Shown here: in pieces, positions 1 through 8,494 of the stretch | Layout: every line of letters begins with the position of its first letter | Numbering within the stretch: the stretch's first letter is position 1 | From: an uncultured archaeon | GTDB lineage: Archaea > Asgardarchaeota > Jordiarchaeia > Jordiarchaeales > Jordiarchaeaceae | Length of the DNA stretch: 8,494 nt | Assembly (NCBI GenBank): GCA_964510585.1 | Contig: CAZECW010000108.1 | Coordinates: 1-8,494 of the forward strand | Direction: 5' to 3' | Position numbers and translations under genes: made by a program | The notes under the pieces: model-generated | Database searches by the model: none | What the model saw: only the letters and a program-made list of their open reading frames with translations | Told to the model about the DNA's origin: nothing

Positions 1-1
1 A

Positions 2-2662
2 ACAGTCATAGAACGTTTAAAGATATTAAATGACGAAATGGTAAAACTCTTGGACTCAGATGAGTGTGAATGGTCAAAAATCCCCTCAGACACAAGATTT
101 CCCGGCTTCTTTTCAAGCATGTCCGACCACGCCCTTGCCACTTCCGCCGTAGGTGTAGCCATAGCAGTAGAACTTTATAATAAGGGAGCCGATTTGGCAG
201 GTGAATACAATGGGGAAATGGCGGAGCTTTTGAAAACTAGAAGGGGAGTAATTGAGGTTGTTAGAACACTATGTCTGCTCCACGACTCGGGGAAACCTTC
301 ACCGAAACACACTGAAAATACTAAAAAGGCTGTCGAAGAGATACTCTCAAAGATAGGCTTCGGCGAATTGGCTACTGATTTAGCAGAGTCAGCTTCAAGA
401 CATCATTATGATAAAGATTCTGAGCGTCCTCCAAGGACAAAGGTCGAGTGGGTAGTTGCCTATGCTGATAAGGTCGCTGTTCAGGATAGAACGTTTGCTG
501 GCAAAATTCTTGGTGTAGCTGTACAACCGCTTAGGTGGTTAGGTGATCATGTTGATTCTTCAAATAAGCAGAGAATATACCAGTTGGCAGACTTTATTGA
601 GCTGTTTGGTAATGACACGAAGATAGATGTTGGAAAAGTATCAGAGGAGATTAAGAAAATTCTTCCATTAGATTACAAATTTTTCAAAGAAACTCTTGAC
701 GCTGAATTATTGAATGCTAGGGAAAGGTTAGGTGAGGATATAAGGTTAGCCTTGATTCTTTTTGAGGGTGCAGGGATACAGGGATATGTTAGGAAGTCGA
801 GTTCCGCTCGCCATCTAGTTGGGCGTAGTTCTCTGGTGGAGGTGGCGACTAGATTAGCTGCAAAAAGTTTGGAGGATATGCTAGCGCCAGAGTCTATAAT
901 TTACGTCACCAGTGGAAGTGTGTTTGCCATTGTTCCTCCCTCAGAACTGCCTCAAATTGTGGATACTTTAAACAAAGAGTTTGAAGATGTTGTTAAAGGT
1001 GGAATCAGTTTAAAGTGCTGTAAAACAGCTGAGGATGTGAGCTTTAGCCTATTTGAGTTGAAAACTGGGCCAAAATTTACATGGGCTAACTGGAAAGAAG
1101 AATCGAAATTTTCAAGAATTGAAAGAAGGAATTTTGGTGAGTTTTACACAATTTTGAATAACACCATTTCTGTTCTTGACCATAAAGTTAGTGGGAGTGG
1201 TTTAACGATTCCCGCGGGGGAAATTTGTTCAATTTGTTTTGAAGAAAAAGCCCTTCCAGAGAATGATCCAGGTATTTTAGATGTAATAAAAAGTTTACCG
1301 GAGGATGAGCGGGAAGGTTATAAGGCTGGAGCCATATGTTTAAACGTTGACCAGCATAGAATGAAATTGAAAGAAACACTTGCAGGATCTTTCAAAATAG
1401 AATTCAAAGGGGAGGAAGCTTATGTTACTTTGCGTGGAGAGGTGCCTCCGGAGGATGTCAAGAATTCGCCCATTTTTATGATTACCGAGGCGATGAGCAA
1501 TATTTTGAGGGATAAGTTAAACGCTGAACATAAAGATCTCATAAGGGAATTTTCAGGAAGAACTGTTGTATTTGAAAATGCTAAATCTTGGAATTTTCTT
1601 GGTCTTGAATCGGGATACGCGCTGGAGGGGAAAGGCGTACCAGAAAAGGAGGAAATGGTGGTAGGGGTTTCGGATGTTGCCTTCATAGGTGGTGATGGGG
1701 ACAATTTTGGTTTAATTAAATCTGCAATGAACAATTTAACTTTATACCGTAAAGTCTCGAAGATATTCAAAGAGGTTATGCAGGACTCTGTAGCCAAAGC
1801 TTTAAGTGAGGTTATAATATACCAGTTAAAGCTTTACTCACAAAGCTATCGTCCCGACAAAAAATTGGAGCCCCCAGCGAAACTTTATCTACCATTTGAT
1901 ATGGTATATTTTGGTGGGGACGATTTTCTCCTGGTTTTAGATGCGGGGTTTGTGTTTATTTTCCTCAAGGCGTTCAGAGACGCAATTTTAGATAGGCTTG
2001 GTTCACGCAAGGAGAATTATCAAAAGCGGGATGGCGAGAATCTTTCCGTTTTTTCCTTAGGCGTATCTTTGGGTGTGGTTGTCGCGCCCAATAGGGCCCC
2101 CATTCATGGAACCTTGAGCGCCCTTAATACACTGGAATCCAAAGCAAAGAAGCTCAGTAAACGTAGGCAGAAGGTTGAGAATAATAAACCAGTTTTCGGT
2201 GGAGAAATATCAGTTGCACTTGAACGTTTCACCACGATTCCCACCAAAGAATTTGTGGAAGAAAATTACAAGGCTAAAGGTTTTGGGGGAACAACGAAAA
2301 TTTGTAGTACTTCATGGCCCCTTCTTGGTGCAGATATTTTCTCCGACTCGCCAGGTGATGGGCGGCCTCTTCCATTAATCACCCTTACGAAAAAGCTTCT
2401 GGAGAAACATGAAATTAGGTCTAATAATGTGGCTGAATTTGCTAGAATTGAAACTCCAAATGAGGAGGAGATAAAACTTCAAATAAGATTCAAAGCTGCG
2501 CGTTTGGACGAGAAGCGTCCTGAGAGAGAGGGCTACAGACTCTTGGCGAATAACCTTACAGTTAGGGAGGATGATTGTATAAAATTCCGTCACGGAGATG
2601 TTGCTAATGCTATGAGGATAGTTAAAGAGAGTCCCCTCTTGTTGCCCTCGGGAGGCGGATAG
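2..2662 (+). CDS. cas10: Type III CRISPR large subunit Cas10 (HD nuclease, two Palm domains, Zn-ribbon). Probably 5'-partial; first in-window ATG at 38.
   Basis: HD residues: DH (H31, nt 128), LHDSGK (nt 281-286 for HD), HH (401-406), YAD (D at 467). Palm1-like LILFEGAGIQGYV...GRSSL. CxxC at 1226-1237. Palm2 GGDGDNFG (D at 1694) and YFGGDDF (GGDD 1913-1924). C-terminal Cas11-like helix IKLQIRFKAAR. The frame has no stop from nt 2 to 37 (TVIERLKILNDE) and there is no evident RBS before ATG 38. Residue numbers count from ATG 38. Confidence 0.97.
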   Translation, partial: TVIERLKILNDEMVKLLDSDECEWSKIPSDTRFPGFFSSMSDHALATSAVGVAIAVELYNKGADLAGEYNGEMAELLKTRRGVIEVVRTLCLLHDSGKPSPKHTENTKKAVEEILSKIGFGELATDLAESASRHHYDKDSERPPRTKVEWVVAYADKVAVQDRTFAGKILGVAVQPLRWLGDHVDSSNKQRIYQLADFIELFGNDTKIDVGKVSEEIKKILPLDYKFFKETLDAELLNARERLGEDIRLALILFEGAGIQGYVRKSSSARHLVGRSSLVEVATRLAAKSLEDMLAPESIIYVTSGSVFAIVPPSELPQIVDTLNKEFEDVVKGGISLKCCKTAEDVSFSLFELKTGPKFTWANWKEESKFSRIERRNFGEFYTILNNTISVLDHKVSGSGLTIPAGEICSICFEEKALPENDPGILDVIKSLPEDEREGYKAGAICLNVDQHRMKLKETLAGSFKIEFKGEEAYVTLRGEVPPEDVKNSPIFMITEAMSNILRDKLNAEHKDLIREFSGRTVVFENAKSWNFLGLESGYALEGKGVPEKEEMVVGVSDVAFIGGDGDNFGLIKSAMNNLTLYRKVSKIFKEVMQDSVAKALSEVIIYQLKLYSQSYRPDKKLEPPAKLYLPFDMVYFGGDDFLLVLDAGFVFIFLKAFRDAILDRLGSRKENYQKRDGENLSVFSLGVSLGVVVAPNRAPIHGTLSALNTLESKAKKLSKRRQKVENNKPVFGGEISVALERFTTIPTKEFVEENYKAKGFGGTTKICSTSWPLLGADIFSDSPGDGRPLPLITLTKKLLEKHEIRSNNVAEFARIETPNEEEIKLQIRFKAARLDEKRPEREGYRLLANNLTVREDDCIKFRHGDVANAMRIVKESPLLLPSGGG

Positions 2663-4926: not shown

Positions 4927-5721
4927 TTGAGCAGTGGCGAAATGAGTCTCCATAGTAGGCTTAAGAGAAGGATAGTCATCGACTGTATGATTGAAACTAT
5001 GGAGCCTCTCCATGTAGGAAAAGGAAAAGAGACCCCGACTGTTTCAGAGGTCGACCTGCCGGTAATAGTTGACAGTAACAAAAATCCTATTATTCCGGGA
5101 TCAAGTATAAGGGGAGTCCTAAGGGCTCATGTGACACGCCTATTGTCCTCCTTAGACGAAACAATCCTCCAACAAGAATTCAACGTTGTAAAAGTTAAAG
5201 CAACAGAAAAGGAAATAGACGAATTCCAAGCAGCGAGGTCTCAAGAAGAAAAAATGAAGCTATTCAGTGAAAAATTAGGCGTCATTGACAAATTGTTTGG
5301 GGCGTCTGGCTATGCTTCACCACTAAGAATGACTGATGCGAAGCCAACAAAAGGAATTGAACTAATCGAGCGAACCCACGTAAGAATTGATAACGATTTA
5401 GATAGAGCAGTAGAAGGTGGACTATTTGATGTTCAGTCTGTTCCCGAGGAGCAACAGTTTGAATTCAAAATTGTTTTCGACGAGTTGAATGACCATGTTA
5501 CACTTGATGTAAGCAAAGTCTTCTACAAACTATTCCTGAATCAATTGGTGGATGGGCTTGAAATGTTTTTAGGCGGAATGAAGTCAAGAGGATACGGATT
5601 AAGCAAAATTAAAGCCAAACAGGTTTTGCTATATACCCCAAAACAATTAGCGTTGGGCGAAAAACCCCAACCCATTACCGACATAAGCGGATTTGTAAAT
5701 GAAGCCCTAAAAGAGATGTAA
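4927..5721 (+). CDS. csm3: Cas7 backbone subunit Csm3, 264 aa (TTG start; alternative ATG at 4942)
   Basis: EPLHVG...DLPV...PIIPGSSIRGVLR, LFGA, RTHVRID...GGLFD, LGGMKSRGYG. RBS GGAGGTGA at 4910-4917. Confidence 0.95.
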   Translation: MSSGEMSLHSRLKRRIVIDCMIETMEPLHVGKGKETPTVSEVDLPVIVDSNKNPIIPGSSIRGVLRAHVTRLLSSLDETILQQEFNVVKVKATEKEIDEFQAARSQEEKMKLFSEKLGVIDKLFGASGYASPLRMTDAKPTKGIELIERTHVRIDNDLDRAVEGGLFDVQSVPEEQQFEFKIVFDELNDHVTLDVSKVFYKLFLNQLVDGLEMFLGGMKSRGYGLSKIKAKQVLLYTPKQLALGEKPQPITDISGFVNEALKEM

Positions 5722-5752
5722 TAAACAAAGGATGGAGAGTGGCGGGATATAA

Positions 5753-6604
5753 ATGAGCGAACCTAAATATTTTGGAAAATATGTACTCCTCAGTCAAATA
5801 GATGCTAAAATAATTGCAAAAACACCATTAAGAGTTGGAAAAGGTAAAGAAATGGCAGTTGTAGAGTCAGACCTACCAATAATAAAAAATTCTGACGAAG
5901 TGCCTATTATACCGGGTTCTTCTCTTAAAGGATTCTTTAGAGCAAACTCAGAAAGAATAATAGCCAACATCAAACCGATTACGGAGGCTGAACAATTAAC
6001 TAAAAAGATATTTGGTTCCTCAGATAAGAAGGAGGAACCCGGCTCAGCGATATTCTTTTACGACCTCAAAGCCACCAACTATAAGCTCGAAAATAGAAAA
6101 CACATCAAAATCAATCCACAGACTGGTGGTGTGGATAACCTATTTGAAGCTGAGTGCGTAATGGACGGCGCATCTTTTGAGGGACGTCTTGCAACAACGA
6201 GGAATCTTTCACCAGTATTTATTGGAATTTTGCAACCAGTAATTGAATTAGCTTCACTGGGCATCTGCCGCCTAGGAGGCTTCAAGAGCAGAGGCTATGG
6301 TTCAGTGGATATTAACATAAATAAGCTGACTCTGATTATACCTGGAAAATCCAAAGAAAAGCTAAAAGAGGGAGTGGAAATCCAACCAACAATAGGAACA
6401 GACAAACCCACACACATCAAAACAAAAAATGGTAACGAGGTAACACTCAAGGAAATAGATGAGGTGAGCTTTAAAGCAAAAATAGAGGAGGAAGCAGGCT
6501 ATCTCGGGGCAAAGATAACAGTGGAAGATACCAAAGAGACTAGCAAACTATTCTCATCGCTGGCTAATCAGTTTCAGAAATACCTCATGGGAGAAAGCAA
6601 GTAG
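5753..6604 (+). CDS. csm3: Cas7 backbone subunit Csm3 with C-terminal extension, 283 aa
   Basis: TPLRVG...SDLPI...PIIPGSSLKGFFR, IFGS, RKHIKINP.TG, LGGFKSRGYG. Confidence 0.95.
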   Translation: MSEPKYFGKYVLLSQIDAKIIAKTPLRVGKGKEMAVVESDLPIIKNSDEVPIIPGSSLKGFFRANSERIIANIKPITEAEQLTKKIFGSSDKKEEPGSAIFFYDLKATNYKLENRKHIKINPQTGGVDNLFEAECVMDGASFEGRLATTRNLSPVFIGILQPVIELASLGICRLGGFKSRGYGSVDININKLTLIIPGKSKEKLKEGVEIQPTIGTDKPTHIKTKNGNEVTLKEIDEVSFKAKIEEEAGYLGAKITVEDTKETSKLFSSLANQFQKYLMGESK

Positions 6605-6622
6605 GAATGGGGGAAGATTGGT

Positions 6623-7510
6623 TTGAGCAGGCAAACACGTGGTTCAGGAGGCGCAGTCTCCTCTTACTATGACTTCATTAAGGTTGATTCAACTAGGAGA
6701 GATAAAATACCAGAACGATTGTTCACAGATAGGAGAAAACTTGGAAACATTTACCTATTGGAACTTCAATTCACTACCATTCGACCCATACATGTTAGTA
6801 CGGGAATGAAGGAGCTCAAAGAAAATGGCGTACCTGAAATAATCATGGTACAATATCTAAATAATAAGGATGGTAAACCAACAATTCCCGGCTCCACGTT
6901 TAAAGGCTTGACATCAACAAACTATCTTGCCCTCACTGGCTCCATCGAACTTACATGCGAACTATTTGGTTCAGACAGGCATCCGGCAATCTCGAAGGTA
7001 TTCTTTGAAGATGTTGTACCGCTTGAGAATGTAGAAACAAAATTGGTGAAGGTTAAAAGAGCATGGATGCCAAAAATAAGTGTTCAAAGAAGTGTTAAGG
7101 TATACACATCTAGGGCTCCTCCAACCGCAGACTATGGGCTAATGCAGTGCATCCCGGAGGGAACAGTGCTCTCGACAACAATACGTGGCGTTGCACTAAG
7201 AGATTTTGAATTGGGAGGATTACTGATGTCTCTAGGACTAAATATCAAAAATGATGAGGTTACCACAGGAGTAATTAAATTAGGCTACGGTAAACCCCAA
7301 GGATTCGGTCAGATTAAACTTAGCCCGGAAAAATCAAAACTTCTATTGGTGGAGTTAAAAGGACTCACAGGAGCCCCAAAGTTACAAGGAAGTCTAGAAA
7401 AAGCAGAAACTGTGGCCAATTATATTAAAAAATTCTTGGAAGAGATAAAAAAGAGGGAGCCTCAAAGGAATGCAGACCAAATATACCAAAAAATCTTCAA
7501 GGGGATCTAG
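6623..7510 (+). CDS. csm5: Cas7-group RAMP, Csm5-like / III-D terminal Cas7, 295 aa (TTG start)
   Basis: YYDFIKV near the N-terminus (cf. the PYNF motif), RPIHVSTG, PTIPGSTFKG, LFG...SKVFFED, ELGGLL, and KLGYGKPQGFG, which resembles the terminal Cas7 of III-D loci. GGGGGA at 6609-6614 lies upstream of the TTG. Confidence 0.82.
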   Translation: MSRQTRGSGGAVSSYYDFIKVDSTRRDKIPERLFTDRRKLGNIYLLELQFTTIRPIHVSTGMKELKENGVPEIIMVQYLNNKDGKPTIPGSTFKGLTSTNYLALTGSIELTCELFGSDRHPAISKVFFEDVVPLENVETKLVKVKRAWMPKISVQRSVKVYTSRAPPTADYGLMQCIPEGTVLSTTIRGVALRDFELGGLLMSLGLNIKNDEVTTGVIKLGYGKPQGFGQIKLSPEKSKLLLVELKGLTGAPKLQGSLEKAETVANYIKKFLEEIKKREPQRNADQIYQKIFKGI

Positions 7511-7513
7511 AAA

Positions 7514-7936
7514 ATGAAGGGAGAAGAGTTAAACGCCAAAAACGTAGATGAGACAATTAATAAGGCAAAAACTTTCCTAAATAAAGTCCCCAAATACTCA
7601 TCCAACCCCGAAATACAAAAAAGAATAGTTCCCGTCACAGCAAACATGGCAAGAACCATCTGCTATAAAATTGCACACGACCAAGCATTTAGGAATCTGA
7701 AGAATTCTCCGATTAAACAGGAAATGAAAAAGCAAATAATCTCAGAGATGATAAATCAAAGAGTCTTCGAAAGGGTTAGGGATAAGAAGGAGCCTTTAAA
7801 AGTTGTGGAAAACCTATTACAGGGATTAATAAGTGAGCTCGACTCTCTAAATTGGTCCACTGAAAAATCCAAACTGTTTATAGAAGCACTGTGTATGATC
7901 TACGAAACTGAAGACAAAGGGATCAAGGTATTTTGA
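7514..7936 (+). CDS. Small helical protein, putative second Cas11/Csm2-like subunit, 140 aa
   Basis: In operon, 3 nt after the previous stop, and appears all-helical. VTANMAR and the C-terminal KLFIEALCMIYE resemble Csm2 motifs (TxxQxR; FxxFFEAxVAY). The resemblance is judged by eye only. Confidence 0.55.
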   Translation: MKGEELNAKNVDETINKAKTFLNKVPKYSSNPEIQKRIVPVTANMARTICYKIAHDQAFRNLKNSPIKQEMKKQIISEMINQRVFERVRDKKEPLKVVENLLQGLISELDSLNWSTEKSKLFIEALCMIYETEDKGIKVF

Positions 7937-8494
7937 AGATAGTAAGCATTATAACAGTTGCCCAACAGTATACTTCCGATAAACTTAAGCAAGTTATGTC
8001 CCAAATTTTAGGGGGGTCCTCACAGAATTTTTCGTACTTGTTTCAATTAATCTCTGGAAAATTCATTAATCTAATGTCTAATCAGGATGCGTCTTCTATA
8101 ACCTTCGATGAAGTTGTCAGATTAGTTAGTAAACTTGGAGCTGTTGAACTATTTATTTTAACCGATGAAGATGGATTATGGGCTAAAATTCCTAAAGAAT
8201 CAAAAGGCGAAAGAAGAGAGGAATCAGATAAAAGTGTAGAGTTCTTAACCTTAGCTATTACAGAGATAAAACCTGAGAATCTTGTAATTATGGATACCAA
8301 AAAGATTATCCTTAGATGTAAATTGGATAATAAAGAAATGTTAGATTATTACACTCATATTGTTAAGGAGTTGAAAGAGGCAAACATTCATTATTACTGT
8401 AATAAATGGTGTAATTATCTAGAATATAAAAACAAGGTAAGTGGAATTAATAAAGAAATCAAAATTGAAGCGCCGACCTTAAAGAAGTTAGTTC
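7933..8494 (+). CDS. Unknown protein, 3'-partial (at least 187 aa), not in the supplied ORF track
   Basis: TTG at 7933 overlaps the upstream TGA (TTGA). Manual translation has no stop to the window end: MKIVSIITVAQQYTSDKLKQVMSQILGG...VELFILTDEDG...LAITEIKPENLVIMDT...YYCNKWCNY...APTLKKLV. Alternative ATG at 7996. Confidence 0.8.
   Translation, partial: MKIVSIITVAQQYTSDKLKQVMSQILGGSSQNFSYLFQLISGKFINLMSNQDASSITFDEVVRLVSKLGAVELFILTDEDGLWAKIPKESKGERREESDKSVEFLTLAITEIKPENLVIMDTKKIILRCKLDNKEMLDYYTHIVKELKEANIHYYCNKWCNYLEYKNKVSGINKEIKIEAPTLKKLV

Follow-up and report, generated by a model that had tools for sequence, protein, structure and literature searches.

The window analysed here is the whole of one 8494-bp contig (C108) from the 96% complete assembly of an uncultured Asgard archaeon of the Jordiarchaeaceae. 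It holds a single plus-strand operon, made up of a large open reading frame (ORF) that runs off the 5' end, six effector genes and two ORFs without a family (Table 1). The large ORF encodes a Cas10 protein, and our subject is its HD domain, in which a PxDTRxP motif and a histidine-bearing helix (the His helix) lie ahead of the HD dyad, whereas in classical Csm1 and Cmr2 they lie behind it. Translation of 38-2662 and location of the motifs in it confirmed the positions that a first-pass annotation of the sequence had assigned to them. M38 (nt 38) is not the true start of the protein; residue numbers count from it unless stated.

Table 1. Features of the window, with positions in nucleotides.
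Feature	Position	Strand	Basis
cas10	2..2662	+	5'-truncated by contig end; PF22335 match, GGDD, Foldseek matches
Last helix of N-terminal extension	2..82	+	No HD motif; homologous to the helix before PxDTRxP in classical Csm1
PSDTRFP, residues 16-22	83..103	+	Translation and motif location
HD motif I helix with D30-H31 (nt 125-130)	119..181	+	Helix at model residues 40-60
DHALATSA, residues 30-37	125-148	+	Translation and motif location
HD motif II LHDSGK (residues 81-86; H82, D83, K86; nt 278-295, dyad His at nt 281) and H91 (K-H91 at 305-310)	278..310	+	Translation, conservation
RHHY, residues 121-124 (H122, H123)	398..409	+	Translation, conservation
YADK..QDR (YADK, residues 142-145, nt 461-472; D144 at 467-469; R151)	461..490	+	Translation, conservation
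Helical spacer from HD core to Palm1, ~90 residues, includes LPLDYKF	491..742	+	
LPLDYKF, residues 209-215	662-682	+	Motif of closer relatives
Palm1, first cyclase-like domain	743..1225	+	Strand at model residues 248-256; aligned to 9g9a Palm1
EGAGIQGY of Palm1, residues 243-250	764-787	+	Translation
Cys cluster C397, C400, C434, presumed zinc finger between the palms	1226..1348	+	Invariant Cys (C409, C412, C446 in alignment numbering of relatives)
Palm2 motifs GDGDNFG (552-558) and GGDD (626-629)	1691..1924	+	Both invariant among aligned relatives
Cas7, Csm3-like RAMP, 210 aa	2681..3313	+	PADLOC Cas7_IIId, E 6.5e-12
Cas5, Csx10 (III-D) type, 407 aa	3324..4547	+	Five best PADLOC matches Cas5_IIId, best E 4.4e-10
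Cas11 small subunit, Csm2-like, 117 aa	4555..4908	+	PADLOC Csm2, E 5.7e-6
Three Cas7-family RAMP genes (264, 283, 295 aa)	4927..7510	+	RAMP and Cas7_IIId matches for all three
140-aa ORF	7514-7936		Without family
187-aa ORF, 3'-open	7933-8493		Without family

The protein has the two Palm domains of a Cas10, with GGDD, and genes for the Cas5, Cas7 and Cas11 effector subunits lie alongside. The Pfam family Cas10-Cmr2_palm2 (PF22335) matches residues 547-709 at 42.9 bits (cut-off 27), and the Pfam HD family (PF01966) covers residues 51-147 at 30.9 bits (cut-off 22). A phmmer search of the protein against PDB sequences gave nothing meaningful and a profile search was needed; the best PDB sequence match (E 3e-25) is Sso1428, the III-D Cas10 of S. 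solfataricus (Csm1 of the SsoCsm complex, 8BMW chain K). The full-length AlphaFold model is of good quality (predicted local distance difference test, pLDDT, 89.8; predicted template modelling score, pTM, 0.92), and its top 50 Foldseek matches in the PDB are all Cas10, with 8bmw_K again the best. It is not a Cas10d: GGDD is intact, and its own genome gave no match to TIGR03174. The named homologues belong to Freyarchaeota, Jordarchaeum, Njordarchaeota, a deltaproteobacterium and Archaeoglobaceae. Among the subtype labels, III-D suits the locus best.

From the N-terminal side the window protein carries PSDTRFP, H31, the dyad H82-D83, H91, the pair H122-H123 and D144, followed by a spacer of ~90 residues and Palm1. 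These motifs follow the canonical HD sequence of H, HD, H, HH, D, as in Cas3; together with the above-cut-off PF01966 score and a domain model that aligns collinearly with HD proteins and Cas3, this order places the domain in the canonical topology of the HD family. It is not a classical permuted Cas10 HD domain, since H31 precedes H82 and D83, there is no His helix before Palm1, and a further ~58 residues of the protein lie upstream. A non-permuted domain was one of the two explanations offered by the first-pass annotation, and the Pfam match, the conservation and the fold alignments described below all agree with it.

The residues that define this order are conserved across the clade. In PSDTRFP, the P is kept in 99, the D in 108 and the R in 106 of 117 relatives, and the motif I histidine (H31) in 112 of 117. 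In LHDSGK, the figures are 141/143 for the H, 139/143 for the D and 138/143 for the K; H91 is kept in 108/141, the two histidines of HH in 130/137 and 122/136, and in YADK..QDR D144 is kept in 123/129 and R151 in 98/110. Thus D18, R20, H31, H82, D83, K86, H122, H123 and D144 each stand at ~90% or more among 117-143 relatives, and the presence of the HD motifs goes far beyond chance. An alignment of 83 diverse relatives, whose column numbers equal the M38 numbers plus 12, gives the same picture: D30, H43, R88, H94, D95, K98, H103, H134, D156 and R163 are at least 90% conserved, and they comprise the PxD Asp, the His of motif I, the dyad and its Lys, one more His, the leading His of the HH pair, and both D and R of AD..DR. 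Two Freyarchaeota homologues depart from the pattern while keeping GGDD: P0008 has DN for DH, HY for HH and AKRV for ADKV, and P0010 has HE and ASML at HD ligand sites. Their sequences suggest lineage-specific loss of the nuclease, which appears to be dispensable in some lineages.

The fold is consistent with the motif order. In three H-first relatives (those with the His helix ahead of the HD core), an HDIG model aligns collinearly from position 4-5 over the His helix and the dyad, and a dGTPase model gives a weak alignment, running from H43 to the dyad, with the window protein and with two homologues. A separate model of the HD domain (pLDDT 95.1, pTM 0.91) was compared exhaustively with known structures, and the entries ranked highest are HD proteins of the canonical type, among them T. 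fusca Cas3 (Z 10.6; root-mean-square deviation 2.8 Å over 139 residues, model range 20-244), the HD domain of T. thermophilus Cas3 (Z 9.9, 25% identity) and 8bmw_K (Z 9.7). Among the best 50 structural neighbours there is neither a classical Csm1 nor a classical Cmr2. Foldseek with the same model retrieved nothing from the PDB at E <=0.001, with weak matches to canonical HD proteins only, and generic HD or HDIG entries only from the AFDB clusters.

The upstream end of the gene probably lies on another contig of the same assembly, C210, where positions 6709-6849 (141 bases) are identical to window positions 1-141. C210 carries the cas10 frame 58-61 codons further upstream to a GTG (C210 6563 or 6572), preceded by a GAGGTGA site that shares bases with the stop codon of the gene before it; the full Cas10 would thus be ~932-935 amino acids (aa) long. 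The same N-terminal extension, with a conserved VDPITF start, is present in 15 of 15 full-length homologues aligned. There is no HD dyad in the 58-61 residues encoded on C210 or in the N-termini of 16/16 aligned homologues. Homologue P0012, from another genome, shows 98% identity to the first 95 residues encoded on C210 and 45-48% over the rest, and homologue P0004 (94% identical) is truncated at the same point as the window, which looks like recombination or a strain fork at the Cas10 N-terminus.

How this layout relates to that of Csm1 and Cmr2 could be addressed with profiles. A profile of the N-terminal domain of the window family, run against 1.84 billion proteins, returned 132 representative clusters, and 145 Cas10-like proteins were scored with separate profiles for the PxDTRxP and His-helix segment (built from H-first sequences only) and for the HD core. 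H-first proteins make up 107 of the 145 and HD-first proteins 23. In the HD-first proteins (~625-675 aa), the HD core lies at 5-90 and the His-helix segment at ~150-200; there the His-helix profile matches after the HD core with E values of 1e-5 to 1e-15, ending ~5-15 residues before Palm1. Solved Csm1 structures (9G9A, 6KC0, 6MUA, 4UW2, 6XN3) match the family profile as two stretches in swapped order, and the match includes the helix that precedes PxDTRxP; in 9g9a, residues 183-237 align to query 47-100. Likewise, positions 146-213 of TIGR02578 align ahead of positions 4-91 in H-first proteins. Judged by these profile matches, the H-first and HD-first layouts are circular permutations of one homologous Cas10 domain. 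In Csm1 and Cmr2, the block of extension helix, PxDTRxP and His helix sits after the HD core and directly before Palm1; the first-pass annotation had stated this position for the PxDTRxP-His helix, and profiles, solved structures and the L. lactis protein (LlCsm1) all show it. The classical proteins (9G9A of E. italicus, 4UW2/6MUR of T. onnurineus, 6XN3 of L. lactis, and Cmr2 of P. furiosus, 4W8Y) are homologous to the window protein in the HD core and the PxDTRxP-His segment, as well as in Palm1, zinc finger, Palm2 and C-terminal domain, and the same chemistry would be expected of them, a target-RNA-activated single-stranded DNA (ssDNA) nuclease and a cyclic oligoadenylate synthase. They differ in that their HD dyad falls within about the first 30 residues and their His helix just before Palm1.

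The first-pass annotation had called the order unusual, a view that would fall if close Cas10 homologues routinely showed it. Both close and distant homologues do: the order is that of the 107 proteins above, which include the S. solfataricus III-D Cas10, with 16/16 aligned homologues and more than 80 further clusters at 50% identity showing it, nearly all of these clusters with GGDD or GGDE. Two other H-first Cas10 genes have a III-D-like gene order at their loci, one of which mirrors the S. solfataricus operon. The unpermuted order is thus ordinary for a whole branch of Cas10, whose checked members stand in III-D or III-D-like loci. In a FastTree phylogeny of 88 proteins, built from Palm1 to the C-terminus, a branch with support 100 has all 12 HD-first proteins on one of its sides, so that one change of order suffices among the 88.

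Taken together, we are confident that the window encodes the large subunit of an Asgard III-D system, a Cas10 whose bona fide HD domain has the canonical, non-permuted order that is normal for a large branch of the family. Several points weigh against this view. The protein reaches 46.3 bits with the Csm1 model TIGR02578 (match at 228-743, cut-off 170) and 33.1 bits with the Cmr2 model TIGR02577 (cut-off 79.4), and the 407-aa Cas5 reaches 26.8 bits with the Csx10 model TIGR02674 (cut-off 177); none of these equivalog cut-offs is reached, so that III-D is the best label and not a proven assignment. Structural Z scores of 10-11.5 fall within a range that, the tool warns, is possible between unrelated helical proteins, and are not decisive for such proteins; in calling the fold we relied on the sequence matches as well as on structure. 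That H31 belongs to the metal site is something we infer from collinear fold alignments, from its conservation and from its homology to H206 of L. lactis Csm1, where H13, D14, D80 and H206 are HD-site residues (PMC8964682). C210 and the window are joined through 141 bases shared by their contig ends, where the assembly graph forks. Finally, the tree was made with FastTree and is unrooted, and its HD-first sample is a single clade reachable by an H-first profile.

Could the HD domain be a catalytically dead structural or regulatory module, in a system that acts only through cyclic oligoadenylate signalling? A survey recognised an HD domain in only 3% of III-D Cas10 proteins and presents III-D as mainly signalling (Hoikkala et al., 2024; PMC11229360); the close homologues P0008 and P0010 have lost key HD residues, and Csm6 and a CARF protein are encoded next door. 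Against this, the window protein retains every one of the seven putative ligands (H31, H82, D83, H91, H122, H123 and D144) and also K86; apart from H91, each of these residues stands at ~90% or more among relatives. The HD profile of the survey was built from Cas10 proteins with 'HD' in their first 50 residues and may miss the H-first architecture, and the HD mutant of the S. solfataricus III-D system is impaired in DNA cutting. We therefore regard a dead domain as unlikely, while recognising that it survives better than the other alternatives considered below.

The S. solfataricus system is indeed the closest experimental guide. Sso1428 shares the N-terminal layout of the window protein: an extension, PADTRP with a His helix (SLASH), LLHDIGK at ~181-188, HH and DADR, in that order. 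The two systems also have in common a GGDD cyclase and an operon that combines a Cas5 gene with several distinct Cas7 genes. An HD variant of the SsoCsm complex, H187A/D188A, was made in the White laboratory, and both the HD and the cyclase sites were needed for efficient plasmid linearisation (PMC4770243); HD and GGDD matter for DNA cutting, and the complex makes cyclic tetra-adenylate (cA4) (PMC4770243, PMC6053304). The two proteins are nevertheless distant: they share ~13-18% identity in structural alignments, the extension of Sso1428 is longer (the matched region starts from ~107, against ~60-70 in the window protein), one is crenarchaeal and the other Asgard, and the gene order differs. 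In 8BMW the N-terminal half of Cas10 is poorly resolved, and the structure paper does not discuss the HD topology.

A second alternative is that the H-first domain was acquired independently from a generic or Cas3/Cas10d-type HD protein, as has been proposed for the Cas10d of type I-D. The motif order is that of Cas3 and Cas10d (PMC3150331, PMC7689449), Cas3 HD domains are among the best structural neighbours, and in the profile search the score of the generic HD hydrolase 2pq7 is about that of Csm1. Cas3 and Cas10d share the canonical order H, HD, H, HH, D, and the HD folds align collinearly with the window model (Z 8-10.6). The seven-residue pattern of the window protein also parallels the T. 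fusca Cas3 site, which holds two metals, the second of them bound by His115, His149 and His150. In sequence, however, they are far less similar to the window HD domain than Cas10 HD domains are. The PxDTRxP-His segment and the helix before it are common to HD-first Cas10 proteins; the HD-first relatives P0061 and P0098, the only two tested against the Csm1 model, pass its cut-off with 201 and 187 bits, and the HD-first proteins tested that pass it match at E 1e-10 to 1e-12; and the solved Csm1 chains match the family profile (and, more weakly, the one built from 16 homologues), as does TIGR02578. By comparison, the best that Cas3-HD chains achieve is E ~0.6, and Cas10d chains are absent at E up to 1. 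The partners also differ: Cas3 acts with a helicase, as a fusion or as a separate protein, and the window Cas10 is accompanied by type III proteins, and the Palm of Cas10d is dead whereas the window GGDD is intact.

Cas10d-like proteins also occur within the phylum. A TIGR03174 search of 301 genomes found large proteins of this kind in 18, mostly one family, and none in the genome of the window. Ten were examined: they have an H-first HD domain, no GGDD and no PxDTRxP, and their HD core is weakly similar to that of the window family, at E 1e-3 to 1e-7. Their open frames measure ~865-990 aa (one is truncated at 450), they carry a W..KYAKF...QSLL.H helix before the dyad, and their matches to TIGR03174 are confined to its HD part, with scores close to or under the cut-off. 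This comparison gave no support for a direct descent link with the H-first III-D HD domains, and we consider independent acquisition improbable, rather less credible than a dead domain.

The weakest alternative holds that the window protein preserves a relic of the tandem duplication that produced the permutation, either as an HD copy further upstream or as LPLDYKF, a decayed PxDTRxP-His copy. Duplication followed by deletion is the textbook route to a circular permutation, LPLDYKF and IPSDTRFP share the pattern [IL]-P-x-D-x-[RK]-F, and the P and D of LPLDYKF are conserved in 29/38 and 30/38 closer relatives. The upstream copy, which the first-pass annotation had offered as one of its two possibilities, is rejected because the 58-61-residue extension on C210 lacks an HD dyad, as do the homologue N-termini. 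LPLDYKF, in which it had seen a degenerate copy, in the usual place and with similar spacing, is rejected by a hidden Markov model of the helix alone and by hhalign (0.3% probability for the LPLDYKF segment against the PxDTRxP segment). At E up to 1000, the PxDTRxP-His profile matched nothing in the LPLDYKF region of a near-identical homologue or the close family, and none of the 107 H-first proteins contains a significant second His-helix match; noise-level scraps (E 30-100) fall near the LPLD stretch in two distant H-first proteins. The register is also wrong: LPLD starts ~25 residues ahead of Palm1, against ~40-45 for the PxDTRxP-helix segment of HD-first Cas10, and with Palm1 as anchor it lies level with the end of the 9g9a His helix, ~15-20 residues downstream of the segment start. 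No His follows LPLD, the model there has two short helices against one 21-residue helix, and the ~90-residue spacer that contains it has no counterpart directly before Palm1 in HD-first proteins. A relic of duplication is very unlikely indeed.

With the canonical, homologous Cas10 HD domain as the preferred reading, the question becomes which order came first. We hypothesize that the permutation was a single event and that the H-first order is ancestral: III-D systems would have kept the original state of the Cas10 HD domain, and the permuted order would have arisen once, on the way to the Csm1 and Cmr2 types. We advance this tentatively, with somewhat less than even confidence.

The effector genes beside cas10 point to subtype III-D. 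The 264-aa gene, first of the three RAMP genes, matches TIGR02581 (Csx7) at 114 bits (cut-off 108). For the 295-aa RAMP (6623-7510), the match to the long type III RAMP model TIGR03986 is confined to C-terminal positions 453-555 of 568, and the matches to the PADLOC Csm3 and Cas7_IIId models (519-650 positions) are likewise C-terminal only; the protein looks like a free-standing counterpart of a domain that other III-D systems carry in fused form. The two terminal ORFs, of 140 and 187 aa, have no Pfam, NCBIfam or PADLOC match, and the Atlas returned nothing for the 140-aa ORF either; they may be accessory subunits of III-D, similar in kind to all1473/Csx19. Upstream of cas10, C210 encodes a 563-aa protein of the Csm6 CARF-HEPN type (311-2002) and a stand-alone CARF5/Cas_NE0113 protein of 266 aa (5766-6566), whose stop overlaps the cas10 start; both fit a type III neighbourhood. 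Two further minus-strand ORFs of C210 (413 and 228 aa) have no Pfam family, and a tandem-repeat scan of this contig found no CRISPR array.

By homology with SsoCsm and other type III systems, a complex of Cas7, Cas5, Cas11 and CRISPR RNA would bind a complementary transcript and thereby activate Cas10. The HD site with its seven candidate ligands, probably a two-metal one, would then cut ssDNA, and the intact GGDD Palm pair would make cyclic oligoadenylate. This signal would activate the CARF-HEPN RNase encoded on C210, perhaps with the stand-alone CARF5 protein sensing or degrading it.

The HD permutation has been described as characteristic of the HD domains fused to type III Cas10, with Cas10d unpermuted (Makarova et al., 2011; PMC3150331), and later as their distinguishing feature or hallmark (Manav et al., 2020, PMC7689449; 2023 type I-D review, PMC10212523); the evolutionary scheme of the review includes a loss of permutation. 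In the open-access literature (most subscription journals lay outside the scope of the search), we found no paper on a non-permuted Cas10 HD domain. Given how the survey of Hoikkala et al. defined its HD profile, it is possible that it undercounts HD domains in III-D, and the nuclease share behind its signalling-only inference for this subtype may be an underestimate.

The window gene is an ordinary member of a known, partly characterised clade and carries little weight alone, its architecture matching that of a protein already purified, mutated and solved. More than 100 GGDD-bearing Cas10 proteins with an unpermuted HD domain made of Csm1-homologous segments amount to a clade-level correction of a textbook generalisation, which is of modest interest. 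The two orders also offer a natural comparison of how HD activation is coupled to target-RNA binding when the motif I helix adjoins Palm1 and when it lies far away. Should the H-first order prove ancestral, calling the permutation the 'hallmark of type III Cas10' would be a mistake for one major subtype, nuclease-competent III-D systems would be undercounted by surveys that search the first 50 residues for 'HD', and the unpermuted HD domain of Cas10d could be explained without a 'loss of permutation' step.

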